From the IMG/VR virus record IMGVR_UViG_2874920711_000012, positions 1-33,220 of that record: 33,220 nt of DNA; one strand, given 5' to 3'. Made by a program: the position numbers and the translations under genes. This DNA is from a virus. Taxonomy: Duplodnaviria > Heunggongvirae > Uroviricota > Caudoviricetes. The notes under the pieces are model-generated. The model was not told where the DNA came from and did not search any database. It saw only the letters and a program-made list of their open reading frames with translations. Shown piece by piece: positions 431 through 22,898 of this stretch (the stretch's first letter is position 1; each line of letters starts with the position of its first letter).

Positions 431-449
431 GGCGAGGCGGGGAAAGCAC
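431..449. other. cos: P2-type cos site (19-nt cohesive end sequence GGCGAGGCGGGGAAAGCAC)
   Basis: Exact match to the recalled P2 cohesive-end sequence, located immediately beyond the 3' end of Q as in P2. Confidence 0.75.
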
Positions 450-618
450 TGCGCGCTGGCGGTGGTGCTGATTTTATTTTTTCAGCGTCTCAGCGCGTCG
501 TGACGGCGCTTAGTCTGCCCGTTGGGGTGTTGGTGTGTCTGCGGGCTGTTTTGTGCTGTGGTGAGCGTGTGAGGGCGTGATGACGGGATGTAAAAAAGCC
601 GCCCGCAGGCGGCGATGT

Positions 619-1653
619 TCAGCCGTTGTCAGTGTCCAGTGAGTAGTTTTTAAAGCGGATGACCTCCTGACCGAGCCAGCCGTTTATCTCGCGGATCCTG
701 TCCTGTAACGGGATAAGCTCATTGCGGACAAAGACCTTTGCCACTTTCTCAATATCACCCAGCGACCCGACGTTCTCCGGCTTGCCGCCCATCAACTGAA
801 AGGGGATGCGGTGCGCGTCAAGCAGGTCAGCGGCGCTGGCTTTTTTGATATTAAAAAAATCGTCCTTCGTTGCCACTTCACTGAGCGGGATAATTTTAAT
901 GCCGTCGGCTTTTCCCTGTGGGGCATAGAGAAACAGGTTTTTAAAGTTGTTGCGGCCTTTCGACTTCACCATGTTTTCGCGAAGCGTTTCGATATCGTTG
1001 CGATCCTGCACGGCATCAGTGACGTACATGATATATCCGGCATGAGCGCCGTTTTCGTAATACTTGCGGCGGAACAGCGTGGCCGACTCATTCAGCCAGG
1101 CAGAATTAAGGGCGCTGAGATATTCCGGCAGACCGTACAGCTCCTGATTAATATCCGGCTCCAGCAGGTGAAACACGGATCCGGGCGCGAAGGCTGTCGG
1201 CTCGTTAAAGGACGGCACCCACCAGTAAACATCCTCCTCCACGCCACGGCGGGTATATTTTGCCGGTGAGGTTTCCAGTCTGATGACCTTACCGGTGGTG
1301 CTGTAACGCTTTTCCAGAAACGCATTACCGAACACCAGAAAATCCAGCACAAAGCGGCTGAAATCCTGCTGGGACAGCCACGGGTGCGGGATAAACGTTG
1401 AAGCCAGAATATTACGTTTGACGTAAATCGGTGAGCTGTGATGCACGGCAGCACGCAGGCTTTTTGCCAGACCGGTAAAGCTGATTGGTGGCTCATACCA
1501 TCTGCTGTTACTGATGCATTCGACGTAATCCAGAATGTCACGGCGGTCGAGTACCGGCACCGGCTCACCAAAGGTGAATACCTCCATTTTCGGGGCGCTG
1601 GCGGTCATTGTTTTTGCCGCAGGTTGCGGTGTTTTCCCTTTTTTCTTGCTCAT
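619..1653 (-). CDS. Q: Portal protein gpQ
   Basis: 344-aa ORF whose sequence and position (next to cos, downstream of P) match the P2 portal protein as recalled. Confidence 0.9.
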   Translation of the reverse strand: MSKKKGKTPQPAAKTMTASAPKMEVFTFGEPVPVLDRRDILDYVECISNSRWYEPPISFTGLAKSLRAAVHHSSPIYVKRNILASTFIPHPWLSQQDFSRFVLDFLVFGNAFLEKRYSTTGKVIRLETSPAKYTRRGVEEDVYWWVPSFNEPTAFAPGSVFHLLEPDINQELYGLPEYLSALNSAWLNESATLFRRKYYENGAHAGYIMYVTDAVQDRNDIETLRENMVKSKGRNNFKNLFLYAPQGKADGIKIIPLSEVATKDDFFNIKKASAADLLDAHRIPFQLMGGKPENVGSLGDIEKVAKVFVRNELIPLQDRIREINGWLGQEVIRFKNYSLDTDNG

Positions 1654-1714
1654 CAGTAAAACTCCAGAATGGTGGATGTCAGCGGAGTGCTGATACCGGC
1701 GGTGAGTGGCTCAT

Positions 1715-3424
1715 TTAACAGGGCGTGCATGGTCGCCCAGGCGAGGTCGGCGTGGCTGGCTTCCTCGCTGCGGCTGGCCTCATAGGTGGCCTGCGTCCGC
1801 TGCTGGTCATGGTCTTGCGGATAGCCATGAACGAGCTGGTGATGTCGGTGGCGCTGACGTCATATTCCAGACAGCCACGGCGGATAACGTCTTTTGCCTT
1901 GAGCACCATTGCGGTTTTCATTTCCGGCGTGTAGCGGATGTCGCGCGCGGCGGGATAGAACGAGCGCACAAGCTGGAACACGCCGACACCGAGGCCGGTG
2001 GCATCAATACCGATGTATTCGACGTTGTATTTTTCGGTGAGTTTGCGGATGGATTCCGCCTGGGTGGCAAAGTCCATACCTTTCCACTGGTGACGCTCAA
2101 GTATTCTGAATTTGCCACCGGCCACCACCGGCGGTGCCAGTACCACGCATCCGGCGCTGTCGCCACGGTGTGACGGGTCGTAACCAATCCATACCGGTCG
2201 GGAGCCGAACGGATTGGCGGCAAACGGCGCATAGTCTTCCCATTCTTCCAGCGTGTCGACCATGCAGCGTTGCAGCTCCTCGAACGGGAATACCGATGCC
2301 TTGTCGTCAACAAATTCACACATGAACAGGTTTTTAAAATCGTCGGCGCTGTTTTCGCGTTTAAGCGGCTCAATGTCGAACAGCGTGCAGCCACCTTTCA
2401 GGGCGTCCTCAATGGTGACAATCTGCCGCCACTGGCCGTCCGCACAGAGAAGCCCACCGGCAAGGGCGTTATGACTGATGTCGATTTCCACGCGTTCGGC
2501 GGCGCTGGCGCGTCCCCGGTTAAACAGTTCACCCGACCAGAACGGGTAGGCGTCGTGCGCCAGCGTGGACGGGGTGGAGAAATAGGTCGAGCGCAGGTGA
2601 CTCTGTGAGGCCATACCTGATGCCATCTTACGCAGTACCTGAAAATTCGGGATCCAGAACATCTCGTCGACGTACAGGTCGCCGTTATGGCTCTGCGCGG
2701 TGTTGGAGTTGGTGCCGAGAAAAATCAGTTTTGCGCCGTTATTGCCCAGGACAATCGGGTCACCGGTCAGGTCAACGTCAACCAGCCGGGCAAAGGCGAT
2801 GATGTATTCGCGGAACACATACGCCTGTGTTTTACTGGCCGACAGAAAAATCTGGTTATGACCGGTTTTCAGGGCGCGCAGCAGCGCCTCGCGGGAAAAA
2901 TAAAACGTCGCGCCAATCTGGCGGGATTTCAGGATATCGCGGATGCGGTGCTCAAGCCCGGCGCGATACCAGTGCAACTGATATTCGAAAGACTGCTCAA
3001 AGAAAATCTGCTCCAGCTTTTCGATGGCTTCGTCACTGAAAAAATTCTTTTTCGGTTTGCGACGCCCGCCTTTGTTGCGGTTAGCGACGTTCGGATTAAG
3101 GTCTGCCTCGTTGCCGGTCTGACTGTAGCGGTTGACCCGCGCCAGTCGTTCAATCTGGCGTCCCAGCAGGTCAATTTCCTTGAAGTCACCGCCGGTTTTC
3201 TGCGGTTTGATAATGAGCTGGGTCAGCCGCGCTTCCAGACTCATTTCGACACGGCTGATGGGGGCAACGCTGTCCCAGCCGTCGCGCTGTTTCCAGCTCT
3301 GCACCGTCGGGCGTTTCATCTGCAACATGGCGGCAATCTGCGGCACGGAAAACCCCTGCCAGTACAGCAGCGCCGCCTGACGACGCGGGTCGTGCAAAAG
3401 AGTGGTGTCTGTGGTGATGGTCAT
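1715..3424 (-). CDS. P: Terminase large (ATPase) subunit gpP, with an apparent C-terminal frameshift
   Basis: N-terminus MTITTDTTLLHDPRRQAALLYWQGF matches P2 gpP as recalled. The last ~25 codons of the ORF look out of frame, so the true stop is probably near 1656. Confidence 0.85.
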   Translation of the reverse strand: MTITTDTTLLHDPRRQAALLYWQGFSVPQIAAMLQMKRPTVQSWKQRDGWDSVAPISRVEMSLEARLTQLIIKPQKTGGDFKEIDLLGRQIERLARVNRYSQTGNEADLNPNVANRNKGGRRKPKKNFFSDEAIEKLEQIFFEQSFEYQLHWYRAGLEHRIRDILKSRQIGATFYFSREALLRALKTGHNQIFLSASKTQAYVFREYIIAFARLVDVDLTGDPIVLGNNGAKLIFLGTNSNTAQSHNGDLYVDEMFWIPNFQVLRKMASGMASQSHLRSTYFSTPSTLAHDAYPFWSGELFNRGRASAAERVEIDISHNALAGGLLCADGQWRQIVTIEDALKGGCTLFDIEPLKRENSADDFKNLFMCEFVDDKASVFPFEELQRCMVDTLEEWEDYAPFAANPFGSRPVWIGYDPSHRGDSAGCVVLAPPVVAGGKFRILERHQWKGMDFATQAESIRKLTEKYNVEYIGIDATGLGVGVFQLVRSFYPAARDIRYTPEMKTAMVLKAKDVIRRGCLEYDVSATDITSSFMAIRKTMTSSGRRPPMRPAAARKPATPTSPGRPCTPC

Positions 3425-3597
3425 GAATACCTCGCCGTGATGAATACACGGCAAGGCTACTGAGTCGCGCCCCGCGATTCGCTAAGGTGCTGTTGTGTCA
3501 GTGATAAGCCATCCGGGACTGATGGCGGAGGATGCGCATCGTCGGGAAACTGATGCCGACATGTGACTCCTCTAATCACTATTCAGGACTCCTGACA
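3425..3597. promoter_or_regulatory. Divergent P/O intergenic region, expected to hold the Ogr-dependent late promoters
   Basis: Position between divergently transcribed P and O, as in P2; no promoter motif was confidently identified in the sequence. Confidence 0.3.
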
Positions 3598-4452
3598 ATG
3601 GCAAAAAAAGTCTCAAAATTCTTTCGTATCGGCGTTGAGGGTGACACCTGTGACGGGCGTGTCATCAGTGCGCAGGATATTCAGGAAATGGCCGAAACCT
3701 TTGACCCGCGTGTCTATGGTTGCCGCATTAACCTGGAACATCTGCGCGGCATCCTGCCTGACGGTATTTTTAAACGTTATGGCGATGTGGTCGAACTGAA
3801 GGCCGAAAAGATTGATGACGATTCGGCGCTGAAAGGCAAATGGGCGCTGTTTGCGAAAATCACCCCGACCGATGACCTTATCGCGATGAACAAGGCCGCG
3901 CAGAAGGTCTACACCTCAATGGAAATTCAGCCGAACTTTGCCAACACCGGCAAATGTTATCTGGTGGGGCTGGCCGTCACCGATGACCCGGCAAGCCTCG
4001 GCACGGAATATCTGGAGTTCTGCCGCACGGCAAAACACAACCCTCTGAACCGCTTCAAATTAAGCCCTGAGAACCTTATTTCAGTGGCAACGCCCGTTGA
4101 GCTGGAATTTGAAGACCTGCCTGAAACCGTGTTCACCGCCCTGACCGAAAAGGTGAAGTCCATTTTTGGCCGCAAACAGGCCAGCGATGACGCCCGCCTG
4201 AATGACGTGCATGAAGCGGTGACCGCTGTTGCTGAACATGTGCAGGAAAAACTGAGCGCCACTGAGCAGCGCCTCGCTGAGATGGAAACCGCCTTTTCCG
4301 CACTTAAGCAGGATGTGACTGACAGGGCGGATGAAACCGGCCAGGCATTCACCCGCCTGAAAAACAGTCTCGACAGCACCGAAAGTCTGACCCAGCAGCG
4401 CCGCAGCAAAGCCACCGGCGGTGGCGGTGACGCCCTGATGACGAACTGCTGA
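3598..4452 (+). CDS. O: Capsid scaffold protein gpO
   Basis: Starts MAKKVSKFFRIGVEGDTCDGRVISAQDIQEMAETFDPRVYG; P2 gpO-like sequence and synteny (the ORF-track start at 3532 is an upstream extension). Confidence 0.9.
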   Translation: MAKKVSKFFRIGVEGDTCDGRVISAQDIQEMAETFDPRVYGCRINLEHLRGILPDGIFKRYGDVVELKAEKIDDDSALKGKWALFAKITPTDDLIAMNKAAQKVYTSMEIQPNFANTGKCYLVGLAVTDDPASLGTEYLEFCRTAKHNPLNRFKLSPENLISVATPVELEFEDLPETVFTALTEKVKSIFGRKQASDDARLNDVHEAVTAVAEHVQEKLSATEQRLAEMETAFSALKQDVTDRADETGQAFTRLKNSLDSTESLTQQRRSKATGGGGDALMTNC

Positions 4453-4525
4453 CCGGCGTCAGTCAGTCCGGGAAAACCTTCACGATTAACCCTTAATTTC
4501 AGGAAAAACTATGCGCCAGGAAACC

Positions 4526-5950
4526 TAATGCCGATCAGTTAAGGATCAGTTGACCGATCCAGTGGCTGTGTAAGAATCCGGAAACGCTCACTTGTTTCCG
4601 GATTTTTTTATGCACATTGGACAGGCTCTTGATCTGGTATCCCGTTACGATTCTCTGCGTAACCCACTGACTTCTCTGGGGATTACCTCGACCCCGAACT
4701 CATCTCTCGTTGCCTTGCCGAATCAGGTACTGTAACGCTACGCAAGCGCCGTCTTCCCCTCGAAATGATGGTCTGGTGTATTGTTGGCATGGCGCTTGAG
4801 CGTAAAGAACCTCTTCACCAGATTGTGAATCGCCTGGACATCATGCTGCCGGGCAATCGCCCCTTCGTTGCCCCCAGTGCCGTTATTCAGGCCCGCCAGC
4901 GCCTGGGAAGTGAGGCTGTCCGCCGCGTGTTCACGAAAACAGCGCAGCTCTGGCATAACGCCACGCCGCATCCGCACTGGTGCGGCCTGACCCTGCTGGC
5001 CATCGATGGTGTGTTCTGGCGCACACCGGATACACCAGAGAACGATGCAGCCTTCCCCCGCCAGACACATGCCGGGAACCCGGCGCTCTACCCGCAGGTC
5101 AAAATGGTCTGCCAGATGGAACTGACCAGCCATCTGCTGACGGCTGCAGCCTTCGGCACGATGAAGAACAGCGAAAATGAGCTTGCTGAGCAACTTATAG
5201 AACAAACCGGCGATAACACTCTGACGTTAATGGATAAAGGTTATTACTCACTGGGACTGTTAAATGCCTGGAGCCTGGCGGGAGAACACCGCCACTGGAT
5301 GATACCTCTCAGAAAGGGAGCGCAATATGAAGAGTTCAGAAAACTGGGTAAAGGCGATCATCTGGTGAAGCTGAAAACCAGCCCGCAGGCACGAAAAAAG
5401 TGGCCGGGACTGGGAAATGAAGTGACAGCCCGCCTGCTGACCGTGACGCGCAAAGGAAAAGTCTGCCATCTGCTGACGTCGATGACGGACGCCATGCGCT
5501 TCCCCGGAGGAGAAATGGCGGATCTGTACAGTCATCGCTGGGAAATCGAACTGGGATACAGGGAGATAAAACAGACGATGCAACTGAGCAGGCTGACGCT
5601 GAGAAGTAAAAAGCCGGAGCTTGTGGAGCAAGAGCTGTGGGGTGTCTTACTGGCTTATAATCTGGTGAGATATCAGATGATTAAAATGGCGGAACATCTG
5701 AAAGGTTACTGGCCGAATCAACTGAGTTTCTCAGAATCATGCGGAATGGTGATGAGAATGCTGATGACATTGCAGGGCGCTTCACCGGGACGTATACCGG
5801 AGCTGATGCGCGATCTTGCAAGTATGGGACAACTTGTGAAATTACCGACGAGAAGGGAAAGGGCCTTCCCGAGAGTGGTAAAGGAGAGGCCCTGGAAATA
5901 CCCCACAGCCCCGAAAAAGAGCCAGTCAGTTGCTTAACTGACTGGCATTA
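4526..5950 (+). mobile_element. IS4 (1425 bp) with 13-bp target-site duplication GCGCCAGGAAACC
   Basis: Terminal inverted repeats TAATGCCGATCAGTTAAGG at 4526 and its complement ending 5950; identical 13-bp direct repeats at 4513-4525 and 5951-5963. Confidence 0.9.
4610..5937 (+). CDS. IS4 transposase (apparent N-terminal frameshift near 4672)
   Basis: ATG at 4610 ([20 protein letters not shown]) shifts frame in a G-run; the remainder (ORF 4765-5937) matches IS4 transposase as recalled. Confidence 0.85.
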
Positions 5951-7025
5951 GCGCCAGGAAACCCGCTTTAAATTTAATGCCTACCTGTCCCGTGTTGCCG
6001 AACTGAACGGCATCGACGCCGGTGATGTGTCGAAAAAATTCACCGTTGAACCGTCGGTCACCCAGACCCTGATGAACACCATGCAGGAGTCCTCTGACTT
6101 TCTGACCCGCATCAACATTGTGCCGGTCAGCGAAATGAAAGGGGAAAAAATTGGCATCGGTGTCACCGGCTCCATCGCCAGCACCACCGACACCGCCGGT
6201 GGCACTGAGCGTCAGCCGAAGGACTTCTCGAAGCTGGCGTCTAACAAGTACGAATGCGACCAGATTAACTTCGATTTTTATATCCGCTACAAAACGCTTG
6301 ACCTGTGGGCGCGTTATCAGGATTTCCAGCTCCGTGTCCGTAACGCCATTATCAAACGCCAGTCCCTTGATTTCATCATGGCCGGTTTTAACGGCGTGAA
6401 GCGTGCCGAAACTTCTGACCGCAGCAGCAATCCGATGTTGCAGGATGTGGCGGTCGGCTGGTTGCAGAAATACCGCAATGAAGCCCCGGCGCGCGTGATG
6501 AGCAAGGTCACTGACGAGGAAGGGCGCACCACCTCTGAGGTTATCCGCGTGGGTAAGGGCGGCGATTATGCCAGCCTTGATGCACTGGTGATGGATGCGA
6601 CCAACAACCTGATTGAACCGTGGTATCAGGAAGACCCTGACCTTGTGGTGATTGTGGGACGTCAGCTACTGGCGGACAAGTATTTCCCCATCGTCAACAA
6701 AGAGCAGGACAACAGCGAAATGCTGGCCGCTGATGTCATCATCAGCCAGAAACGCATCGGTAACCTGCCGGCGGTACGCGTCCCGTACTTCCCGGCGGAT
6801 GCGATGCTCATCACGAAGCTGGAAAACCTGTCCATCTACTACATGGATGACAGCCATCGCCGCGTGATTGTGGAAAACCCGAAACTCGACCGCGTGGAGA
6901 ACTACGAGTCAATGAACATTGATTACGTGGTGGAAGACTATGCAGCCGGTTGTCTGGTGGAGAAAATTAAGGTCGGTGATTTCTCCACACCGGCTAAAGC
7001 GACCGCAGAGCCGGGAGCGTAACCG

Positions 7026-7318
7026 ATGACGAGTCCCGCACAGCGCCACATGATGCGGGTCTCGGCAGCGATGACCGCGCAGCGGGAAGCAGCCCGCTGC
7101 GACATGCAACTGTCTATGAGCAGATGCTGGTTAAGCTCGCCGTAGACCAGCGCACACTGAAAGCAATTTATTCAAAAGAGCTGAAGGCCGCGAAAAAACG
7201 CGAACTGCTGCCGTTCTGGTTGCCGTGGGTGAATGGCGTGCTGCCGCACGGCACCGCCGTCGAACTGCCCGACGTTCAGACCGCGCCCGTGGCTGAAACT
7301 GTCAATCTGTGGGAGTAA
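7026..7318 (+). pseudogene. M: Deletion remnant: 5' part of terminase small subunit gene M fused to the 3' end of tail gene X; L absent
   Basis: Starts MTSPAQRHMMRVSAAMTAQREAA (gpM-like), shifts frame at a C-run, and ends …LPHGTAVELPDVQTAPVAETVNLWE (gpX C-terminus as recalled). Only 296 bp separate the N stop from the Y start, where P2 has M+L+X (about 1.5 kb). Confidence 0.6.
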
Positions 7319-7321
7319 CGC

Positions 7322-7602
7322 ATGACAGCAGAAGAAAAAAGCGTTCTGTCGCTTTTCATGATTGGGGTGCTGATTGTTGTCGGCAAGGTGCTTGCCGGTG
7401 GTGAACCCATCACCCGCGTCTGTTTATCGGGCGCATGTTGCTCGGTGGTTTTGTCTCGATGGTTGCCGGTGTTGTTCTGGTGCAGTTTCCTGACCTGTCA
7501 CTGCCTGCGGTGTGCGGCATTGGCTCCATGCTGGGTATCGCCGGTTATCAGGTGATTGAGATTGCCATTCAGCGCCGCTTTAAGGGCAGGGGGAAACCGT
7601 AA
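7322..7602 (+). CDS. Y: Holin gpY (apparent frameshift near 7410)
   Basis: MTAEEKSVLSLFMIGVLIVVGKVLAGGEPIT… hydrophobic holin-like start; frame breaks at a C-run and the alternate frame runs to the stop overlapping the K start. Confidence 0.75.
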
Positions 7603-8099
7603 TGCCGGTTATTAACACGCATCAGAATATCGCCGCCTTTCTCGACATGCTGGCCGTGTCCGAAGGGACGGCGAATCATCCGCTGACGAAAAAACGGGGC
7701 TATGACGTGATAGTCACCGGACTGGACGGAAAGCCGGAAATTTTCACCGACTACAGTGACCACCCGTTCGCGCATGGCCGACCGGCGAAGGTGTTTAACC
7801 GTCGCGGTGAAAAATCCACGGCCTCCGGTCGCTATCAGCAGCTTTACCTGTTCTGGCCGCACTACCGCAAACAGCTTGCCCTGCCGGATTTCAGTCCGTT
7901 GTCACAGGACAGACTTGCCATTCAGTTGATCCGTGAACGCGGTGCACTGGATGACATCCGGGCGGGACGCATTGAGCGCGCCATTTCACGCTGTCGCAAT
8001 ATCTGGGCGTCCCTGCCGGGTGCCGGTTACGGTCAGCGTGAGCATTCACTGGAAAAACTGGTCACCGTCTGGCGTACCGCTGGCGGCGTACCTGCTTAA
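7602..8099 (+). CDS. K: Endolysin gpK
   Basis: 165-aa ORF in the P2 lysis cassette position after Y; sequence consistent with P2 gpK as recalled. Confidence 0.9.
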   Translation: MPVINTHQNIAAFLDMLAVSEGTANHPLTKKRGYDVIVTGLDGKPEIFTDYSDHPFAHGRPAKVFNRRGEKSTASGRYQQLYLFWPHYRKQLALPDFSPLSQDRLAIQLIRERGALDDIRAGRIERAISRCRNIWASLPGAGYGQREHSLEKLVTVWRTAGGVPA

Positions 8100-8113
8100 A
8101 CGGAGTAAACACC

Positions 8114-8539
8114 ATGAAGAAATTATCCCTTTCACTGATGCTGAACGTGTCGCTGGCGCTGATGCTGGCACTGTCCCTGATTTACCCGCAGAGCGTGGCC
8201 GTCAATTTTGTCGCCGCCTGGGCGATTCTGGCGACGGTTATCTGTGTGGTTGCCGGTGGTATTGGCGTGTATGCCACTGAGTATGTACTGGAACTCTACG
8301 GGCGGGAGCTGCCGCCGGAATCGCTGGCCGTGAAGATTGTCACGTCGCTGTTTTTGCAGCCGGTGCCGTGGCGCAGACGGGCGGCGGCTCTGGTTGTGAT
8401 GGTGGCGACATTTATCTCGCTGGTCGCTGCCGGGTGGATTTTTACCGCGCTGATTTATCTCGTAGCGTCGCTGTTTTTCCGGCTGATACGCACGGCCTGC
8501 CGTCAGCGTCTTGAGGGGCGGGAACCATGTCAAGGCTGA
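8114..8539 (+). CDS. lysA: LysA, multi-TM lysis accessory protein
   Basis: 141-aa strongly hydrophobic ORF directly after K. Confidence 0.8.
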   Translation: MKKLSLSLMLNVSLALMLALSLIYPQSVAVNFVAAWAILATVICVVAGGIGVYATEYVLELYGRELPPESLAVKIVTSLFLQPVPWRRRAAALVVMVATFISLVAAGWIFTALIYLVASLFFRLIRTACRQRLEGREPCQG

Positions 8540-8952
8540 TGATTGTACTGATTGTGTTGTTATCGCTGGCGGTGGCGGGTCTGTTTCTGGTGAAACACAA
8601 AAATGCCAGCCTGCGCGCTTCGCTGGACAGGGCGAACAGCGTCGCCAGCGGGCAGCAGACGACCATCACCATGCTGAAAAATCAGCTTCATGTTGCGCTC
8701 ACCAGGGCAGAAAAAAACGAGCTGGCGCAGGTGGCACTGCGTCAGGAACTGGAAAACGCCGCGAAGCGTGAAGCACAGCGCGAGAAAACCATCACGAGGT
8801 TACTCAATGAAAACGAAGATTTTCGCCGCTGGTACGGTGCTGACCTGCCTGATGCTGTGCGCCGGTTGCACCAGCGTCCGGCCTGCACCGACGCCAGTGA
8901 TTGTCGCCAACGCCTGCCCGAAAGTGAGTCTTTGCCCGATGCCGGGCAGTGA
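8527..8952 (+). CDS. lysB: LysB, Rz-like inner-membrane spanin
   Basis: N-terminal TM segment followed by a charged, likely coiled-coil region; position after lysA. Confidence 0.8.
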   Translation: MSRLMIVLIVLLSLAVAGLFLVKHKNASLRASLDRANSVASGQQTTITMLKNQLHVALTRAEKNELAQVALRQELENAAKREAQREKTITRLLNENEDFRRWYGADLPDAVRRLHQRPACTDASDCRQRLPESESLPDAGQ

Positions 8953-9097
8953 CCCGCAGACGAACGGCGATTTAAGTGCTGATATCAGGCAGCTTGAGAA
9001 CGCGCTGGCACGCTGTGCCAGCCAGGTAAAAATGATTAAACACTGTCAGGACGAAAACGATGCTCAAACCCGACAGCCTGCGCAGGGCGTTGACTGA
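8807..9097 (+). CDS. lysC: LysC, Rz1-like outer-membrane lipoprotein spanin, partly embedded in lysB in another frame
   Basis: MKTKIFAAGTVLTCLMLCAGCTS… signal peptide with lipobox-like LCAGC; overlaps the lysB 3' end out of frame. Confidence 0.65.
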   Translation: MKTKIFAAGTVLTCLMLCAGCTSVRPAPTPVIVANACPKVSLCPMPGSDPQTNGDLSADIRQLENALARCASQVKMIKHCQDENDAQTRQPAQGVD

Positions 9098-9527
9098 TGC
9101 CGTCACGGTGCTGAAAACTAACCCCGATATGCTGCGGATATTCGTGGATAACGGGAGTATTGCCTCCACACTGGCGACGTCGCTGTCGTTCGAAAAGCGT
9201 TACACGCTCAATGTGATTGTGACCGACTTTACCGGTGATTTTGACCTGCTCATCGTGCCGGTGCTGGCGTGGCTGCGGGAAAATCAGCCCGACATCATGA
9301 CCACCGACGAAGGCCAGAAAAAGGGCTTCACGTTTTATGCAGACATCAACAATGACAGCAGCTTTGATATAAGCATCAGCCTGATGCTGACCGAGCGCAC
9401 GCTGGTCAGTGAGGTGGACGGCGCGCTGCATGTGAAGAATATCCCTGAACCTCCGCCGCCGGAGCCGGTTACCCGCCCGGTGGAGCTTTATATCAATGGC
9501 GAACTGGTGAGCAAGTGGGATGAATGA
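9060..9527 (+). CDS. R: Tail completion protein gpR
   Basis: 155-aa ORF, P2 gpR-like sequence and position. Confidence 0.85.
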   Translation: MLKPDSLRRALTDAVTVLKTNPDMLRIFVDNGSIASTLATSLSFEKRYTLNVIVTDFTGDFDLLIVPVLAWLRENQPDIMTTDEGQKKGFTFYADINNDSSFDISISLMLTERTLVSEVDGALHVKNIPEPPPPEPVTRPVELYINGELVSKWDE

Positions 9528-9972
9528 GTTTAAGCGTTTTGAAGACCGGCTGGCCGGACTGACTGAATCGCTGTCACCGTCAGGGCGTCGGCGACTGAGC
9601 GCCGAACTGGCGAAACGTCTGCGTCAGAGTCAGCAGCGTCGGGTGATGGCACAGAAAGCCCCGGACGGCACACCCTACGCGCCACGTCAGCAGCAGAGCG
9701 CCAGAAAAAAGACCGGTCGCGTTAAGCGAAAAATGTTTGCGAAACTTATCACCAGTCGTTTTTTGCATATCCGCGCCAGCCCGGAACAGGCATCAATGGA
9801 GTTTTACGGCGGGAAGTCACCGAAAATCGCCAGTGTGCATCAGTTCGGTCTGTCGGAAGAAAACCGGAAAGACGGTAAGAAAATTGATTATCCGGCGCGT
9901 CCTCTGCTCGGCTTTACCGGTGAGGATGTGCAGATGATTGAAGAGATTATCCTGGCTCACCTGAATCGTTAG
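9520..9972 (+). CDS. S: Tail completion protein gpS
   Basis: 150-aa ORF, P2 gpS-like sequence and position. Confidence 0.85.
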   Translation: MNEFKRFEDRLAGLTESLSPSGRRRLSAELAKRLRQSQQRRVMAQKAPDGTPYAPRQQQSARKKTGRVKRKMFAKLITSRFLHIRASPEQASMEFYGGKSPKIASVHQFGLSEENRKDGKKIDYPARPLLGFTGEDVQMIEEIILAHLNR

Positions 9973-10051
9973 CTTTAATCATCTGAGAATATAAGATAGA
10001 AATCAATTGATTAGCATAATTTATTTTGAATTTTCATGTTAATAAATAAAA

Positions 10052-10073
10052 GGCCAGTTATTGGCCTTTTATC
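10052..10073. terminator. Bidirectional intrinsic terminator between S and the cargo gene at 10075-10494
   Basis: Hairpin GGCCAGTTATTGGCC flanked by A/T runs on both sides (…ataaataaaa GGCCAgttaTTGGCC ttttatc…). Confidence 0.6.
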
Positions 10074-10074
10074 A

Positions 10075-10494
10075 TTACTTTCCATTTTTTAATGAATTGA
10101 TTAACGATGCTATTTGCTCAATGCCATCAAATGTAGATGGTATCTTATCATCGGATAGCATGATGTTTGAAAATACTACGTCTTCGAATTTTGAAAGCGC
10201 TTCCGGATTGTTTTTCCTTATCTCTGAGGAATAGTCGCTATAACTCTGAATGAACTGACAAAGGCTCTTTCTGAGTTCTATTTGCATAATCTGAGTTCGT
10301 AACGATATATGATTTAGCAGTACAACTCTAAAGTAATACATGAAAATCAATGTAACTGATGCAAAAGGTAGTGCTGACATAAAATATGTGGCAGCATTTG
10401 TCGTTTCGAGAGCTGGTAATTTATGCATTCCATAGTATATCAGCTGGGAGGGAATGATTATAGCCAAGATGATAAGAATTATTCTTGATAGCAT
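10075..10494 (-). CDS. Hypothetical two-TM membrane protein (139 aa), downstream gene of the S-V cargo module
   Basis: Intact ORF on the strand opposite the phage late genes; two N-terminal hydrophobic segments (RIILIILAIIIPSQLIYYGM and YFMSALPFASVTLIFMYYF); AT-rich. Function unknown. Confidence 0.6.
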   Translation of the reverse strand: MLSRIILIILAIIIPSQLIYYGMHKLPALETTNAATYFMSALPFASVTLIFMYYFRVVLLNHISLRTQIMQIELRKSLCQFIQSYSDYSSEIRKNNPEALSKFEDVVFSNIMLSDDKIPSTFDGIEQIASLINSLKNGK

Positions 10495-10580
10495 GATTGC
10501 ACTTTCTTTTTTTTGCCAAGTGAATTAAAGCCTTCAAACAATCCAACAAAATTAAATGCGACCTCATACCCTTTTAATGA

Positions 10581-11147
10581 CTATTTGATTGACTCTATTT
10601 TGGCATGTTGCTCCTTTAAGAAGGAGTCGCACTTTTCGAAAAATTGACGCCCTTCGTTTAAACTATCAATGTATTTTTTATATGTGTCAACATTGCTGGA
10701 GCTTAAAACTTCTTTAACCATTGCTAATGGCAGTTCTCTAAGAGAAAAGTCTATCTGTGCTCTGCTCCGCTCATCGAATTCATTATAGTTATACAGAGCA
10801 AAATCCTTGATGGTTCTTAGTGGTGAAAAGTGAGACTCTATTTCCGGAGAGAGAATGCTTGGTTCAATGATAAAGCTAAAAAAGCAAGTGAATATAAGGT
10901 TGATGCTGTTGTTATCTTCTCCCTTTTTTCTTAAGAAACTTTTAAAGGTGTCGCCAATCATAGCAATGTTGTGCTGGGATTTTTTGTCCCAATCTTCAGG
11001 GTTTTCGGAAATGAAGTTTATTGCTTGAGCAATTATTTTGTTTCTGTTTGATTCAAAGTTTGTGCCGGGAGTCAGCGTGTTCAAAAAGACCAGATAATCT
11101 TTGAACAATTCTTTCATTGTTTCTGACGAGAAAAAGTAAGTACTCAT
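10581..11147 (-). CDS. Hypothetical soluble protein (~188 aa), upstream gene of the S-V cargo module
   Basis: AT-rich ORF co-oriented with 10075-10494, 86 bp upstream of it. Start chosen at MSTYFF (11147); the ORF track extends to 11243, which would overlap the V start. No recognised motif. Confidence 0.5.
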   Translation of the reverse strand: MSTYFFSSETMKELFKDYLVFLNTLTPGTNFESNRNKIIAQAINFISENPEDWDKKSQHNIAMIGDTFKSFLRKKGEDNNSINLIFTCFFSFIIEPSILSPEIESHFSPLRTIKDFALYNYNEFDERSRAQIDFSLRELPLAMVKEVLSSSNVDTYKKYIDSLNEGRQFFEKCDSFLKEQHAKIESIK

Positions 11148-11233
11148 AATGGATTTTGTTGTCCCTTGTTGTTCTGTGCACCAGAAATCGTGGTGTGATT
11201 TACTTCGAGATTGTACAGAATCATTATTATCGA

Positions 11234-11863
11234 ATGAATGCACAATACAATGAAATTCTTCGCTTTATACGCAATATGATTCGCACTGGCATTATTGTCG
11301 AAACCGACCTTAATGCCGGTCGCTGCCGTGTGCAGACCGGCGGCATGTGCACCGACTGGCTTCAGTGGCTGACCCATCGCGCCGGACGTTCGCGCACATG
11401 GTGGGCACCTTCCGTGGGGGAACAGGTGCTGATTCTGGCCGTGGGCGGTGAACTCGACACGGCGTTCGTTCTGCCGGGGATTTATTCCTGCGATAACCCC
11501 GCGCCGTCTGCGTCGGCGGATGCCCTGCATATCCGTTTCCCTGACGGGGCGGTGATTGAGTATGAACCCGAAACCAGTGCACTCACGGTAAGCGGAATTA
11601 AAACGGCCAGCGTGACGGCTTCTGATTCTGTTACTGCCACGGTGCCGGTGGTCATGGTGAAAGCGTCAACCCGCATCACCCTGGACACCCCGGAGGTGGT
11701 CTGCACCAACAGACTGATTACCGGCACGCTGGAAGTGCAGAAGGGCGGGACGATGCGCGGCAACATTAAACATACCGGCGGTGAACTCTCATCAAACGGT
11801 AAGGTACTGCATACCCATAAACACCCCGGCGACAGCGGCGGCACAACCGGGAGTCCTCTATGA
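11234..11863 (+). CDS. V: Baseplate spike protein gpV
   Basis: …LRFIRNMIRTGIIVETDLNAGRCRVQTGGMCTDWLQW… P2 gpV-like; start at ATG 11234. Confidence 0.9.
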   Translation: MNAQYNEILRFIRNMIRTGIIVETDLNAGRCRVQTGGMCTDWLQWLTHRAGRSRTWWAPSVGEQVLILAVGGELDTAFVLPGIYSCDNPAPSASADALHIRFPDGAVIEYEPETSALTVSGIKTASVTASDSVTATVPVVMVKASTRITLDTPEVVCTNRLITGTLEVQKGGTMRGNIKHTGGELSSNGKVLHTHKHPGDSGGTTGSPL

Positions 11864-12207
11864 CAGCGCGTTATCTTGGAATGAATCGCAGTGATGGCCT
11901 GACGGTCACTGACCTTGAGCATATCAGCCAGAGTATCGGCGATATCCTGCGCACACCGGTCGGCTCACGGGTGATGCGTCGTGATTACGGCTCGTTGCTG
12001 GCGTCAATGATTGACCAGCCGCAGACCCCGGCGCTTGAGTTGCAGATTAAGGTCGCCTGTTACATGGCGGTGCTGAAATGGGAACCCCGCGTCACCCTGT
12101 CATCCGTCACCACGGCGCGCAGCTTTGATGGGCGAATGACGGTCACGTTAACCGGCCAGCACAACGACACCGGCCAGCCACTTTCGTTAACCATCCCTGT
12201 GAGTTGA
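11860..12207 (+). CDS. W: Baseplate protein gpW
   Basis: 115-aa ORF, P2 gpW-like sequence and position. Confidence 0.85.
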   Translation: MTARYLGMNRSDGLTVTDLEHISQSIGDILRTPVGSRVMRRDYGSLLASMIDQPQTPALELQIKVACYMAVLKWEPRVTLSSVTTARSFDGRMTVTLTGQHNDTGQPLSLTIPVS

Positions 12208-12211
12208 AACC

Positions 12212-13120
12212 ATGCCGATTATCGACCTGAACCAGCTACCCGCACCGGATGTGGTCGAGGAGCTGGACTTTGAAACCATTCTCGCCGAACGCAAGGCGAC
12301 ACTGATTTCCCTTTACCCGGAAGACCAGCAGGAGGCGGTCGCCCGTCCCCTGACGCTGGAATCTGAGCCTCTCGTCAAACTGCTGGAGGAAAATGCTTAT
12401 CGTGAGCTTATCTGGCGTCAGCGTGTGAATGAGGCCGCACGGGCGGTGATGCTGGCCTGTGCCGCCGGTAATGACCTTGATGTGATTGGTGCCAATTACA
12501 ACACCACGCGTCTGACTATCACCCCGGCAGATGATTCGACTATCCCGCCGACACCGGCAGTGATGGAGTCTGACACGGATTATCGTCTGCGTATTCAGCA
12601 GGCGTTTGAAGGCTTAAGCGTCGCCGGGTCGGTGGGAGCCTATCAGTATCATGGTCGCAGTGCTGACGGGCGTGTCGCGGATATCTCTGTCACCAGTCCG
12701 TCTCCGGCCTGCGTCACTATCTCCGTGCTGTCACGTGAAAATAACGGCGTCGCATCCGAAGACCTGCTGGCCGTGGTGCGTAACGCCCTTAATGGCGAGG
12801 ACGTCAGGCCGGTGGCCGACCGCGTGACCGTGCAGTCTGCCGCCATTGTTGAATATCAGATAAACGCCACACTTTACCTTTACCCAGGTCCCGAAAGCGA
12901 ACCCATCCGCGCTGCTGCCGTGAAAAAACTGGAAGCGTACATCACGGCACAGCACCGGCTGGGGCGCGACATCCGTCTGTCTGCCATTTATGCCGCTTTG
13001 CATGTGGAAGGCGTGCAGCGTGTCGAACTGACTGCACCGCTGGCTGACATCGTGCTCAACAGTACGCAGGCGTCTTTCTGTACTGAATACCGCGTCGTGA
13101 CCGGAGGCTCGGATGAGTGA
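12212..13120 (+). CDS. J: Baseplate protein gpJ
   Basis: 302-aa ORF, P2 gpJ-like sequence and position. Confidence 0.9.
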   Translation: MPIIDLNQLPAPDVVEELDFETILAERKATLISLYPEDQQEAVARPLTLESEPLVKLLEENAYRELIWRQRVNEAARAVMLACAAGNDLDVIGANYNTTRLTITPADDSTIPPTPAVMESDTDYRLRIQQAFEGLSVAGSVGAYQYHGRSADGRVADISVTSPSPACVTISVLSRENNGVASEDLLAVVRNALNGEDVRPVADRVTVQSAAIVEYQINATLYLYPGPESEPIRAAAVKKLEAYITAQHRLGRDIRLSAIYAALHVEGVQRVELTAPLADIVLNSTQASFCTEYRVVTGGSDE

Positions 13121-13643
13121 TTCGCGACTGCTGCCGACCGGCTCATCACCGCTTGAAGTCGCCGCCGCAAAAGCCTGTGCGGAAATTGAAAAAACACCGG
13201 TCAGTATTCGTGAGCTGTGGAACCCGGACACCTGCCCGGCAAATCTGCTGCCGTGGCTGGCGTGGGCGTTTTCGGTCGACAGGTGGGATGAAAAGTGGCC
13301 GGAAGCGACCAAACGCGCCGTTATTCGCGATGCCTATTTCATCCACTGTCATAAAGGCACTATAGGTGCAATCCGGCGTGTGGTGGAGCCGCTAGGCTAT
13401 CTCATCAACGTGACGGAGTGGTGGGAAACCAGTGACCCGCCGGGCACCTTCCGGCTTGATATTGGTGTACTGGAAAGTGGCATCACAGAGGCAATGTATC
13501 AGGAAATGGAACGGCTGATTGCTGATGCCAAACCTGCAAGCCGCCACCTTATTGGCCTGAACATTACCCGGGACATTCCCGGCTACCTGTTCGCCGGTGG
13601 TGTGGCTTATGACGGCGATGTAATTACGGTTTACCCCGGATAA
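13113..13643 (+). CDS. I: Baseplate protein gpI
   Basis: 176-aa ORF, P2 gpI-like sequence and position. Confidence 0.85.
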   Translation: MSDSRLLPTGSSPLEVAAAKACAEIEKTPVSIRELWNPDTCPANLLPWLAWAFSVDRWDEKWPEATKRAVIRDAYFIHCHKGTIGAIRRVVEPLGYLINVTEWWETSDPPGTFRLDIGVLESGITEAMYQEMERLIADAKPASRHLIGLNITRDIPGYLFAGGVAYDGDVITVYPG

Positions 13644-13654
13644 GTGAGGAATAA

Positions 13655-15756
13655 TGAGCACAAAATTCAGAACCGTTATCACCACTGCCGGTGCAGCAAA
13701 GCTGGCAGCGGCAACCGCACCGGGAGGCGGAAGGTCAACATTACCACGATGGCCGTCGGGATGGCGGTGGTAAATTGCCTGTCCCGGATGCCGGACAGAC
13801 CGGGCTTATCCATGAAGTCTGGCGACATGCGCTGAACAAAATCAGCCAAGACAAACGAAACAGTAATTATATTATCGCAGAGCTGGTTATTCCGCCGGAG
13901 GTGGGCGGTTTCTGGATGCGTGAGCTTGGCCTGTACGATGATGCGGGAACGTTAATTGCCGTGGCGAACATGGCCGAAAGTTATAAGCCAGCTCTTGCCG
14001 AAGGCTCAGGGCGTTCGCAGACCTGCCGTATGGTCATCATCGTCAGCAGTGTGGCCTCAGTGGAGCTGACCATTGACACCACAACGGTGATGGCGACGCA
14101 GGATTACGTTGATGACAAAATTGCAGAGCACGAACAGTCACGACGTCACCCGGACGCCTCGCTGACCGCAAAAGGTTTTACTCAGTTAAGCAGTGCGACC
14201 AACAGCATGTCTGAAACACTGGCTGCAACGTCGAGAGCGGTAAAGACCGCCTATGACCTTGCTAACGGGAAATATACCGCGCAGGATGCCACCACCGCGC
14301 GAAAAGGCCTTGTTCAGCTCAGTAGTGCGACTAACAGCACGTCTGAAACGCTCGCCGCAACGCCGAAAGCATATGACCTTGCTAACGGGAAATACACTGC
14401 ACAGGATGCCACAACAGCGCGAAAAGGCCTTGTTCAGCTCAGTAGCGCCACCAACAGTGATTCTGAAACGCAGGCTGCAACGCCAAAGGCGGTGAAGTCT
14501 GCCTATGACAATGCTGAAAAACGTCTTCAGAAAGATCAGAACGGTGCGGATATCCCTGATAAAGAACGCTTCCTGAGTAACATTAATGTTTACAGCAAAG
14601 GTGAAGTGGATAAGAAAAAGGGAATGCGAAAGTATTCGTTTGCAGCCCCTGCAAATGTCGTTGCCGGGAAGTGGTACCCCGTTATCTTTCGCCGTGCTGC
14701 CAGCCTTTCAGGAGAAATGGCATCCCGCGTTGTTATTTCCACTGGTTGTTATAACGGCGATTATGTAATGAATAACTGCGAGTTTAATGGCATGGTTATG
14801 CCCGGAGGCTGGACTGATCGTGGTTCATATGCGGCAGGTTATTACTGGACGTATCAGACTAATGAGCGTTCAATCCATTCCATTGTTACAAGCCTGAAAG
14901 ATGATGATGTATGTAGTGTTTTTTATGTTGAAGCCAGAGCTTTCCCTGTACAAATTCTTGCAGAGGAAGGGCTAACGGTTATTGTTCCGACAGAGGATTA
15001 TGTCGTCGGTCAAACGACATATAAGTGGGGGGCAACTAATCCCGCTACAGAAAGCACGAACGCACAGGCTATTCTGGATTTTAAAAATGGACGTGGTTAT
15101 TACTGTTCACATCCATTTATTTCCAGCCTTTCAGGAAATGCTGCAACAGCAACGAAGTTAGCGAACGCAAGAAATATTAATGGTGTCAGATTTGATGGCT
15201 CTGCCGATATAAATATTAATACACTGGTATCCAGAAACCGTGTTACTGCATTAGGTGGGAGCGTAAAGGGGACACCAGGTATTCAGATGTATGAGGCATA
15301 CAACAATGGCTACCCAACAGCCTATGGTAATGTGCTTCATCTCACTGGCGTAACCGCAGTAGGAGAGGGTGAGTTACTTATTGGTTGGAGTGGAACCAGC
15401 GGTGCTCATGCTCCGGCATATATTCGTTCCCGACGAGATACCACAGATGCTAACTGGTCTGGATGGGCGCAACTATATACAACTGCTCATAAACCTCAGC
15501 GGGAGATGTTGGTGCATACACCAAAACTGAGTCAGATTCACGTTATGTGAGAGACATGCGGCTGGGCGGTGCATCTACATATAAACCAGCAAATAATGGT
15601 ACTACATGGACGCATCAGGCTCCGTCAGGTTGCGTATATACCGGCATTATTGTTCAGGATACCGGCTCAAACTCTGCCGATAACATTGGTGGCGTATATT
15701 ACAGACCGGTGCAGAAATACATTAACGGGACATGGTATAACGTGGTGCAGGTATAA
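13655..15756 (+). CDS. H: Tail fiber protein gpH (apparent frameshifts near 13725, 13760 and 15545)
   Basis: ATG 13655 encodes MSTKFRTVITTAGAAKLAAATAPG (gpH N-terminus); frame breaks in G-runs; contains SSATNS…AYDLANGKYTAQDATTARKGLVQL repeats; AT-rich distal (receptor-binding) part continues into ORF 15547-15756. Confidence 0.8.
14170..14480 (+). repeat. Coding tandem repeats (~120-nt unit, about 3 copies) inside the tail fiber gene
   Basis: Repeated peptide QLSSATNS(x)SETLAATPKA…YDLANGKYTAQDATTARKGLV visible three times in the gpH translation. Confidence 0.6.
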
Positions 15757-16337: not shown

Positions 16338-16372
16338 TCCGCTCTGTGCCAGGAGCAGACATTACCAACGTT
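16338..16372. repeat. Copy A of a ~35-nt conserved motif (GC-rich stem with loop TGTGCCAG) that recurs at 20342-20376
   Basis: TCCGCTCTGTGCCAGGAGCAGACATTACCAACGTT versus TTCGCTTTGTGCCAGGAGCGGACGTTGCCAGCATT, about 80% identity; also pairs with an upstream arm TGGCACAGAG (16310-16319 with 16342-16351). Confidence 0.5.
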
Positions 16373-16644
16373 ATGACCCTCGATTACATCAAAGAGCCCT
16401 ATAGCCGAAACCTGCACCATAGCCATCTCTGTAGAATTCGTCCTAGGGGCTTTTAACAGACCTAGTTGTATGGATCGGAAGGAAATATTAAAGCTCAAGG
16501 CGTCAGTCCAGTGCTGTCCTGTTTGCTTACCACACGAAAGAGTGCTGCTTGTACCTGCTAACTAATGGTATGCGGAGTGAGGGGGCGGGTAGAACCAAAA
16601 GCACTTACTACGTGTGGCGCTCTCCTGGAAGAGGAGACGTCGAA

Positions 16645-16731
16645 GTGATAACGCTAACAACAGTCTTACTGGTGATGCAAATAATGCTAGCTGGTCTGGT
16701 TGTCATCAAGCAACTGACCGGACGCCCGTAA
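16645..16731 (+). CDS. Candidate small hydrophobic peptide (28 aa, GTG start), type I toxin-like
   Basis: GAGGAG Shine-Dalgarno 8 nt upstream of GTG; peptide MITLTTVLLVMQIMLAGLVVIKQLTGRP; an intrinsic terminator hairpin follows and is split by IS2. Speculative. Confidence 0.3.
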   Translation: MITLTTVLLVMQIMLAGLVVIKQLTGRP

Positions 16732-16865
16732 GGGATGGAGGAACTTGATTAAAGGCAGGGGGTTACCTCCCCTGCTAGACTGGCCCCTGAATCTCCAGAC
16801 AACCAGTATCACTTAAATAAGTGATAGTCTTAATACTAGTTTTTAGACTAGTCATTGGAGTACAG

Positions 16866-17231
16866 ATGATTGATGTCTTAGGGCCGGAGAAACGCAGACG
16901 GCGTACCACACAGGAAAAGATCGCAATTGTTCAGCAGAGCTTTGAACCGGGGATGACGGTCTCCCTCGTTGCCCGGCAACATGGTGTAGCAGCCAGCCAG
17001 TTATTTCTCTGGCGTAAGCAATACCAGGAAGGAAGTCTTACTGCTGTGGCCGCCGGAGAACAGGTTGTTCCTGCCTCTGAACTTGCTGCCGCCATGAAGC
17101 AGATTAAAGAACTCCAGCGCCTGCTCGGCAAGAAAACGATGGAAAATGAACTCCTCAAAGAAGCCGTTGAATATGGACGGGCAAAAAAGTGGATAGCGCA
17201 CGCGCCCTTATTGCCCGGGGATGGGGAGTAA
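16866..17231 (+). CDS. insC: IS2 InsC (orfA)
   Basis: [56 protein letters not shown]… IS3-family orfA. Confidence 0.85.
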
Positions 17232-18094
17232 GCTTAGTCAGCCGTTGTCTCCGGGTGTCGCGTGCGCAGTTGCACGTCATTCTCAGACGAACCGATGACT
17301 GGATGGATGGCCGCCGCAGTCGTCACACTGATGATACGGATGTGCTTCTCCGTATACACCATGTTATCGGAGAGCTGCCCACGTATGGTTATCGTCGGGT
17401 ATGGGCGCTGCTTCGCAGACAGGCAGAACTTGATGGTATGCCTGCGAACAATGCCAAACGTGTTTACCGGATCATGCGCCAGAATGCGCTGTTGCTTGAG
17501 CGAAAACCTGCTGTACCGCCATCGAAACGGGCACATACAGGCAGAGTGGCCGTGAAAGAAAGCAATCAGCGATGGTGCTCTGACGGGTTCGAGTTCTGCT
17601 GTGATAACGGAGAGAGACTGCGTGTCACGTTCGCGCTGGACTGCTGTGATCGTGAGGCACTGCACTGGGCGGTGACTACCGGCGGCTTCAACAGTGAAAC
17701 AGTACAGGACGTCATGCTGGGAGCGGTGGAACGCCGCTTCGGCAACGATCTTCCGTCGTCTCCAGTGGAGTGGCTGACGGATAATGGTTCATGCTACCGG
17801 GCTAATGAAACACGCCAGTTCGCCCGGATGTTGGGACTTGAACCGAAGAACACGGCGGTGCGGAGTCCGGAGAGTAACGGAATAGCAGAGAGCTTCGTGA
17901 AAACGATAAAGCGTGACTACATCAGTATCATGCCCAAACCAGACGGGTTAACGGCAGCAAAGAACCTTGCAGAGGCGTTCGAGCATTATAACGAATGGCA
18001 TCCGCATAGTGCGCTGGGTTATCGCTCGCCACGGGAATATCTGCGGCAGCGGGCTTGTAATGGGTTAAGTGATAACAGATGTCTGGAAATATAG
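17189..18094 (+). CDS. insD: IS2 InsD (orfB, DDE transposase domain)
   Basis: 301-aa ORF overlapping insC in another frame, typical IS3-family orfA/orfB arrangement. Confidence 0.85.
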
Positions 18095-18180
18095 GGGCAA
18101 ATCCACCTGCCTTTTTTCGTTTCTGCGCAAGTTAGCTCTGTTATTATAATCCTTACTCACACTGTAAGGACATAGTTCAA

Positions 18181-18309
18181 ATGACTGAATGGCTTAATGC
18201 ACATTTTGGTGCAGACGCAGCTACCTATCTTAGCTTATTAGTCGGCGTACTGGCACTGTTTGGTATTGGGGCGGTGTTACATATAGAATCAGACAGCAAA
18301 ACAACATAA
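18181..18309 (+). CDS. Small TM peptide ORF (42 aa); possibly the N-terminal part of one gene with 18339-18797
   Basis: ATG at 18181 with AAGGA upstream and a TATAAT at 18145-18150; hydrophobic stretch LSLLVGVLALFGIGAVL. The downstream ORF frame is open back to 18232, so a single base difference in 18232-18306 would fuse the two. Confidence 0.4.
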   Translation: MTEWLNAHFGADAATYLSLLVGVLALFGIGAVLHIESDSKTT

Positions 18310-18338
18310 AACAGAAGGCAAAGAAAACCGAGGGTGAT

Positions 18339-18797
18339 GTGAACCAGGCCGGGCGGGATATTAATCAGACCACCAACGTTTACCACACATCCAATGAATC
18401 TACTGAGGACCCTGTAAAAAAAAAGCAAGATGAACATGATCTGAAGATAATCGACCAGATCCTTGAATTGCTGCCTTATGAGGATACTACTCAATGGGTT
18501 GAGCAGAGCTACCTGAGCGGTATACGGCAAGATGTTTGCTTAAACATTGAAAAAGCTGAAAAATTTAGCGGTGAAAAGTATCGGTTATTCAATACTGAAG
18601 TGAATGGTGCGAAAGACGCTTTTTTGGACGCTATGACCGCATACGTAGATAGTACGCTACCATTTATGAGTGTTGATTACCCGAACAGAAAGCCAGTGAT
18701 GCTAAGCCTTCCCCATGACTGGAAGAGTAAGAGTGTTGAATCGGAGGCAAACTTCCGCTTTCATCAGCAAAATGTGCGTGAAACATCGGGGGGATGA
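18339..18797 (+). CDS. Hypothetical protein (152 aa as called)
   Basis: AT-rich ORF with no recognised motif; followed by a terminator hairpin that is split by the IS10-like element. Confidence 0.5.
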   Translation: MNQAGRDINQTTNVYHTSNESTEDPVKKKQDEHDLKIIDQILELLPYEDTTQWVEQSYLSGIRQDVCLNIEKAEKFSGEKYRLFNTEVNGAKDAFLDAMTAYVDSTLPFMSVDYPNRKPVMLSLPHDWKSKSVESEANFRFHQQNVRETSGG

Positions 18798-18955
18798 TTG
18801 CGCGCTATGAGGATTTTGTCAGGACATTTAAGGCTCATGGATTCATAAGCGATAAACTGTAAAGGCGCAGTGGGTCAGCGAACACCGCAACGACAGAACC
18901 GCGTAAGCGGTAAAATCAGCTTGTTAACTGGCGAGTTTATAGCCGTCCCTCCGGG

Positions 18956-20255: not shown

Positions 20256-20341
20256 CCCTCCGGGGCGGCTTTTTTATGACTATAATCGACAGAATCACCT
20301 GAACGTCCAGGTGGGTTTCCCTGACAGGACGTCAAGGAATG

Positions 20342-20376
20342 TTCGCTTTGTGCCAGGAGCGGACGTTGCCAGCATT
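20342..20376. repeat. Copy B of the ~35-nt conserved motif seen at 16338-16372
   Basis: See copy A; lies in the intergenic region ~150 bp upstream of the 20526 ORF. Confidence 0.5.
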
Positions 20377-20525
20377 GAGTTTTCAGTTTTCAAAGGTATA
20401 TCTTTAGATTTAGTTCACTTAGAATGAGCGTGTTAAAGTTTTCGGTTATGTGAGTATATTGAACATAACAAATAAACAATAATTTTTGTATTCCATTTAG
20501 GATATAAAAAAGAGGGATTTGAGTT

Positions 20526-21311: not shown

Positions 21312-21413
21312 GTAAAAAGTTGAAGCTATAATACTCAAAGTATCGAAAACTACGTTCGTCGTGCACTCGAAAACAATATGCTTATTGTGTCTGCACTAAT
21401 TACTCAAGGTCCG

Positions 21414-21450
21414 AGAAAAATGGCGAAGCTCATCTTTTTCAGGCTTCGCC
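21414..21450 (-). terminator. Intrinsic terminator for the minus-strand HNH-domain gene
   Basis: Hairpin GGCGAAGC…GCTTCGCC (21422-21450) followed on the minus strand by a U-run (plus-strand A-run 21416-21420), just past the gene's stop at 21473. Confidence 0.55.
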
Positions 21451-21472
21451 AACTTGAGTTATTGGTTAAAAT

Positions 21473-22826
<1,354 letters not shown>

Positions 22827-22898
22827 TGGAGCACCTGTGTTGTTCTGAGGTGAGCATATCACCTCTGTTCAGGTGGCCAAATTCAGTGTGCCACTTCA

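Follow-up and report, generated by a model that had tools for sequence, protein, structure and literature searches.

An in-frame junction of genes M and X in a P2-like prophage of Shigella, a probable scar of short-homology deletion

Phage P2 encodes its small terminase in gene M and its head-completion protein in gene L, and both genes are essential. The decay of defective prophages through insertion sequence (IS) insertion, short-repeat deletion and frameshifts in IS-rich Shigella is generally well documented, and deletions formed by slippage between short direct repeats in E. coli reportedly have their classic description in lacI. A further relevant system is E. coli K-12, which carries what we take to be a cryptic P2 remnant adjoining yegQ (ogrK/yegZ). 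We analyzed a P2-like prophage in a 33,220-nucleotide stretch of viral DNA (IMG/VR record IMGVR_UViG_2874920711_000012, positions 1 to 33,220; hereafter the window), in which most of M, all of L and most of X are missing. The window follows P2 (AF063097) in gene order and shares about 97% nucleotide identity with it over cos-Q-P-O-N-M', 'X-Y-K-lysA-lysB-R-S, V-W-J-I-H and FI-ogr-attP, and the start of M and the end of X are identical to P2 in position and frame. Unlike P2, the window lacks 1,262 bp between these two gene ends, carries an IS4 in N, has frameshifts in P, M', Y, FI, FII and T, and has other DNA in its orf30 and fun(Z) slots. The locus has a close relative in the prophage of Shigella boydii 965-58 (AKNA01000058.1), which has the same M/X junction and the same IS4 in N; unlike the window, it keeps the A region, an open 97-aa chimera and an open 93-aa Y gene, and has a transposase gene adjoining a shortened H gene. 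We conclude that the locus is very probably a scar of neutral decay, formed by a short-homology deletion in a cryptic P2-like (Peduovirus) prophage of Shigella.

The P2-like sequence of the window falls into blocks that follow P2 coordinates. The first contains cos, Q, P, O and the start of N (window 431–4525, P2 1–4094), and is followed by N and M' (5951–7243, P2 4082–5375), 'X to S (7238–9977, P2 6632–9372), V to the 5′ part of H (11270–14370, P2 10350–13452), and FI to ogr with the attP core (24779–31714, P2 17433–24382). With the attP core (P2 24382) the prophage comes to its end, and beyond it lies a gene for a 453-aa U32 peptidase (31859–33220, minus strand). A comparison over 17.3 kb shows the window to be 100% identical to the complete chromosome CP026824.1, where its immediate left neighbors are an IS630-type transposase gene and host genes of the yegR/yegS type. 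Since the prophage has a U32 peptidase gene on one side and these yegR/yegS-type genes on the opposite side, its chromosomal site may be that of the K-12 remnant; the two differ in extent, the K-12 remnant presumably spanning a few hundred bases and the prophage of the window about 24 kb of P2-like sequence.

We mapped the interval between capsid gene N and holin gene Y, in which all features are encoded on the plus strand. An IS4-type insertion sequence occupies the first codons of N (4526–5950; Nterm_IS4 and DDE_Tnp_1 domains), with a 390-aa transposase ORF (4765–5937), terminal inverted repeats and a 13-bp target duplication, GCGCCAGGAAACC (4513–4525 and 5951–5963). The portion of N lying 3′ of the IS4 (5951–7022) corresponds to P2 4082–5153 by blastn and to P2 N residues 2–357 at 99.4% identity by tblastn, and terminates at a TAA stop codon at 7020–7022. 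The ATG of M follows at 7026 and that of Y at 7322. An earlier sequence-only reading of this DNA had placed 296 bp between the N stop and Y; that length belongs to 7026–7321, counted from the M ATG through the last base before Y, and the N stop is separated from Y by 299 nt. The counterpart of this interval in P2 holds M (744 bp), L (510 bp) and X (204 bp).

Alignment of the interval to P2 and to three further intact references (Yersinia phage vB_YpM_115, Escherichia phage pro483 and the prophage of E. coli 00-3076) bears out the proposal that the ORF found here fuses the start of M to the end of X. Removal of L, part of the same proposal, is likewise upheld, since a tblastn search with P2 proteins finds no match to L across the window. 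In the pairwise alignment to AF063097, window 6950–7243 equals P2 5081–5375, covering the end of N and M codons 1–73, and window 7238–7400 equals P2 6632–6794, covering X from codon 42 onward and Y. The P2 alignments of the two flanks overlap by six bases, GTGCTG, at 7238–7243. P2 contains this hexamer twice, at 5370–5375 within M (codons 72–73) and at 6632–6637 within X (codons 42–43), and the junction keeps one copy. The remnant of M (7026–7243) matches P2 5157–5375 at 97% identity and is frameshifted, and the remnant of X, comprising codons 44–67 and the stop codon (7244–7318), aligns with P2 6638–6712. Absent from the window are M codons 74–247, the whole of L and X codons 1–43.

In all four intact references GTGCTG stands at both ends of the missing interval, and the interval measures 1,262 bp in each, a length mapped on relatives about 97–99% identical and not on the true parent sequence; the first estimate of about 1.1 kb was too small. 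Aligning the locus with the M-L-X region of P2, a check suggested with the sequence-only reading, thus confirmed both the breakpoints and the presence of microhomology, and the placement of the junction inside a short direct repeat held in every reference. The repeat itself proved shorter than described. The 8-bp stretch originally named, GCGTGCTG, is the junction sequence of the M side only. In X the corresponding bases are G(C/T)GCGGTGCTG; beyond the hexamer the similarity is therefore imperfect, and the exact microhomology shared by the two sides is 6 bp. The flanks of the hexamer are only loosely alike, reading GGGTGAACGGCGTGCTG on the M side and GGGTGCGGTGCTG or GGGGGCGGTGCTG on the X side, and the full 32-nt junction sequence is CCGTGGGTGAAYGGCGTGCTGCCRCACGGCAC.

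We compared this overlap with chance expectation in P2. An overlap of at least 6 bp occurs at 0.26% of 200,000 random P2 junctions and at 0.28% of all pairings of an M position with an X position, and a frequency of about 0.3% at random junctions makes chance an unlikely source of the repeat and fits a short-homology deletion. On either side the sequence runs parallel to P2 at about 97% identity, and the two sides meet at a single clean breakpoint with no inserted DNA. As in slippage deletions of E. coli, one repeat copy is kept, the interval between the copies is gone and nothing has been inserted; unlike those deletions, this one is known from its scar alone, and its interval of 1.26 kb is long for slippage at a repeat of 6 bp. 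Six bases is a modest repeat, and the microhomology fits slippage without proving it. A search at the P2 deletion ends for structures that favor slippage, inverted repeats and longer direct repeats among them, returned nothing convincing: no hairpin-forming inverted repeat pairs the two ends, and the deletion did not use the longer imperfect direct repeats that the lost interval contains. The deletion was a rare event, visible only because it became fixed in a lineage.

Deletion by other machinery has to be weighed at the same breakpoint. The prophage is rich in IS elements, with an IS4 in N and IS630-type, IS3-family and other copies elsewhere, and on this basis an IS-mediated adjacent deletion, or else the action of a site-specific recombinase, might have removed the interval. 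IS-mediated adjacent deletions leave an IS at the junction, however, and positions 7238–7243 contain no IS end or other IS sequence, no terminal inverted repeat, no target duplication and no foreign base, with both flanks continuing directly into phage sequence. We consider such an origin very unlikely and favor deletion between the two GTGCTG copies.

The deletion fuses M codon 73 in frame to X codon 44. The resulting 64-aa ORF (7124–7318) begins at what was formerly the internal Met33 of gpM, as seen by translation, and joins M residues 33–73 to X residues 44–67. Pfam analysis detects positions 1–44 of 130 of Phage_term_smal (PF05944) and positions 41–60 of 60 of Phage_tail_X (PF05489), the latter scoring 22.0 bits where the cut-off is 22. 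Upstream of this ORF the M part carries a C>A substitution at 7091 beside the loss of one nucleotide in a C run, leaving CCC at 7093–7095 where P2 and S. boydii 965-58 have CCCC (frameshift site 7091–7095 by three-way comparison). Because of this frameshift, the ORF that starts at the M ATG is limited to 39 aa and ends at 7145 (7026–7145, by translation). The protein quoted in the sequence-only reading as a single ORF, 'MTSPAQ...REAA...WLPWVNGVL', is not continuous in the window, as its ellipsis spans the frameshift at 7093–7095. No full-length gpM (247 aa in P2; 130-position profile) is encoded, only M residues 1–73 being present, and no uninterrupted frame extends from the M start codon; nor is there a gpX with a full 60-position domain and its own start codon, X codons 1–43 being absent. 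In S. boydii 965-58 the same chimera is an open 97-aa ORF, M(1–73)::X(44–67). The GenBank entry for the 64-aa ORF, EIQ29164.1, is named 'putative terminase [Shigella boydii 965-58]'.

Holin gene Y (7322–7602), immediately downstream, is also frameshifted. One C has been lost from a CCCC run, now at 7413–7415, yielding ORFs of 77 aa and 55 aa, and tblastn with P2 proteins places the split at codon 31; Y is intact in P2 and in S. boydii 965-58 (93 aa in the latter). The single-C losses in M (7093–7095) and Y (7413–7415) could be homopolymer assembly errors. If both were errors, neither strain would have a disrupted chimera, and the argument that it is free of selection would be weaker; an error in M is made less likely by the adjacent substitution at 7091.

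A different account of the chimera would have it kept because it is useful to the host, as a putative truncated small-terminase decoy that, if expressed, would block packaging of superinfecting P2-like phages, and on that account the deletion persisted because it is protective. Compatible with such a role are the in-frame fusion, the intact 97-aa ORF in S. boydii 965-58 and the open state of K, lysA, lysB, R and S downstream. Against it, an in-frame result is expected by chance in one case out of three, the chimera is frameshifted in the window and is known from two assemblies only, and it lies downstream of the IS4 in N, an insertion that, to judge by the annotated operon map of P2, probably exerts polarity on the Ogr-dependent O operon. 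A decoy function appears highly doubtful to us, and we infer that the chimera lacks function, as a neutral decay scar would.

We next consider where the junction occurs. The 64-aa protein is found on two records, CP026824.1, a complete chromosome of 4.97 Mb, and AKNA01000058.1, a draft contig of 176 kb from S. boydii 965-58. The latter is 99.7% identical to the window over 14.5 kb and shares with it the junction as well as the IS4 in N, and the two records differ elsewhere in the prophage. Its recovery from two separately deposited assemblies indicates that the junction is a real inherited deletion. Several single-base indels in homopolymer runs of the window could be sequencing errors, and by extension the junction might be a sequencing artefact or the product of a collapsed assembly; yet a 6-bp repeat is far too short to cause assembly collapse, and the identical junction is present in a complete chromosome and in a draft contig that differ elsewhere in the prophage, which makes an artefact extremely unlikely.

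Searches of wider sequence collections returned the M and X halves side by side nowhere beyond this lineage. By megablast, the halves are contiguous in 0 of 114 matching phage records (among 50,697 phage records searched) and in 0 of 5,426 complete E. coli genomes, 1,503 of which contain matching P2-like sequence. Two exact or degenerate patterns spanning the junction are absent from GTDB species representatives, and a pattern scan of IMG/VR returned one locus, which agrees with the contig of S. boydii 965-58 at every one of 4,131 bases (100% identity). The possibility that the ORF at 7124–7318 is a natural small gene, which had been named as the finding that would overturn the sequence-only reading, failed in these searches: the 64-aa ORF or its 97-aa form as a natural gene of a subgroup of P2-like phages has in its favor an open reading frame, an in-frame fusion and the GenBank name 'putative terminase', but its halves are never contiguous in phage records or in complete E. 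coli or species-representative genomes, the only IMG/VR match is that to the S. boydii 965-58 contig, each half is 97–99% identical in DNA to part of an intact M or X, and each spans just a fragment of its Pfam domain, leaving this reading vanishingly unlikely.

A protein search with the conceptual 97-aa chimera returned truncated or rearranged gpM fragments and the known 64-aa protein, with no further M::X fusion among its matches. PGAP-style pseudogene calls leave no protein, so a search of this kind cannot gauge how far the deletion has spread in Shigella. Two further proteins, both from E. coli contigs, are independent rearrangements of gpM with breaks within about 20 bp of the junction: in P0017, ...VNGVLE continues into the C-terminus of gpM (...RTLKPKPE...), and in P0018, ...WLPWV is followed by part of the lysA region read out of frame. 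These breaks could mark a deletion-prone spot or could be an effect of the query ending at M residue 73. Literature searches on CP026824, on P2-like prophages in Shigella boydii and on prophage decay with microhomology turned up nothing on this locus in the portions of the publications that they covered.

Lesions are not confined to the N–Y interval, and at least a dozen of them disrupt or remove P2 genes in this prophage. The large-terminase gene P (1656–3424) is divided between two frames with a break near codon 545 (near 1790). By tblastn, the sheath gene FI (24994–26179) lies in three frames and the tube gene FII (26195–26708) in two, and the tape-measure gene T (27188–29628) matches in four segments. 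These frameshifts, affecting FI, FII and T in two to four frames or segments each, and the truncation of X rule out a domesticated tail (tailocin). With P2 proteins as tblastn queries, orf30, fun(Z), int, C, cox, B, A, tin and old have no match in the window. A fragment of cosR (387–449, 87% identical) and a 92-aa ORF (1–279) precede cos; on the same left side S. boydii 965-58 still has gene A and a 458-aa cargo gene. The window combines P2 gene order and a host att site with essential genes that are lost or disrupted, the features of a cryptic prophage. Inability to package DNA, which the sequence-only reading had drawn from the loss of M and L, does follow from P2 genetics; as an account of this prophage it is incomplete, many other lesions being disabling as well. 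The deletion is one lesion among many and not the cause of the prophage's defectiveness.

Several segments of the prophage have been replaced or expanded. The orf30 slot (9978–11269) is foreign to P2 and has a G+C content of 32–37%, against about 55–58% in the flanking sequence. Its two minus-strand ORFs, of 139 aa (10075–10494) and 220 aa (10581–11243), have no significant Pfam match and look like a putative cargo ('moron') cassette. The fun(Z) slot between G and FI (16365–24778) is expanded to about 8.4 kb and contains two IS3-family transposase genes, a split transposase gene of the DDE_Tnp_1 type and an IS630-type transposase gene (23500–24597), with pieces of a cargo region between the transposases; in P2-like prophages elsewhere in E. 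coli this cargo region is unbroken and about 3.4 kb long. Between the IS630 copy and the one left of the prophage in CP026824.1, identity is 99.8%. Tail-fibre gene H (13691–15550, 619 aa) matches P2 H at 97.5% identity for residues 37–240 only, its distal part being at most 44% identical to P2, and G is 75% identical; this pattern is the usual host-range mosaic of P2-like phages.

Differences between the window and S. boydii 965-58 suggest an order of events for the neutral decay scar, and for this order and for slippage as the mechanism we infer the following scheme. The ancestor would have carried a normal O-N-M-L-X-Y late operon, from which a single RecA-independent short-homology event, by replication slippage or illegitimate recombination, would have excised 1,262 bp between the two GTGCTG copies and left one. 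The frame would have been kept by chance, producing the 97-aa M(1–73)::X(44–67) chimera that is still open in S. boydii 965-58. The deletion and the IS4 insertion in N would predate the split of the two strains, and the chimera would later have been frameshifted in the lineage of the window, as expected for a pseudogene without selection; the later frameshift in M in turn speaks against the chimera being under selection. Only the lineage of the window probably has the frameshifts in M' and Y, and loss of the early region is apparently confined to it as well, because S. boydii 965-58 retains gene A. What the latter strain has instead is a transposase gene beside its shortened H.

Every component of the locus is a standard P2 part, and the junction is an ordinary pseudogene scar with nothing new in kind; the finding carries little weight beyond annotation and touches no open question. 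For annotation its consequence is direct: the 'putative terminase' ORF at 7124–7318 is a chimera of M and X, for which pseudogene remnant would be the proper label. The junction could also serve as a lineage marker. For Shigella, the locus offers a clean and dated case of a prophage decaying step by step, in which an IS4 insertion and a short-repeat deletion common to two strains were followed by strain-specific frameshifts and IS-associated losses.
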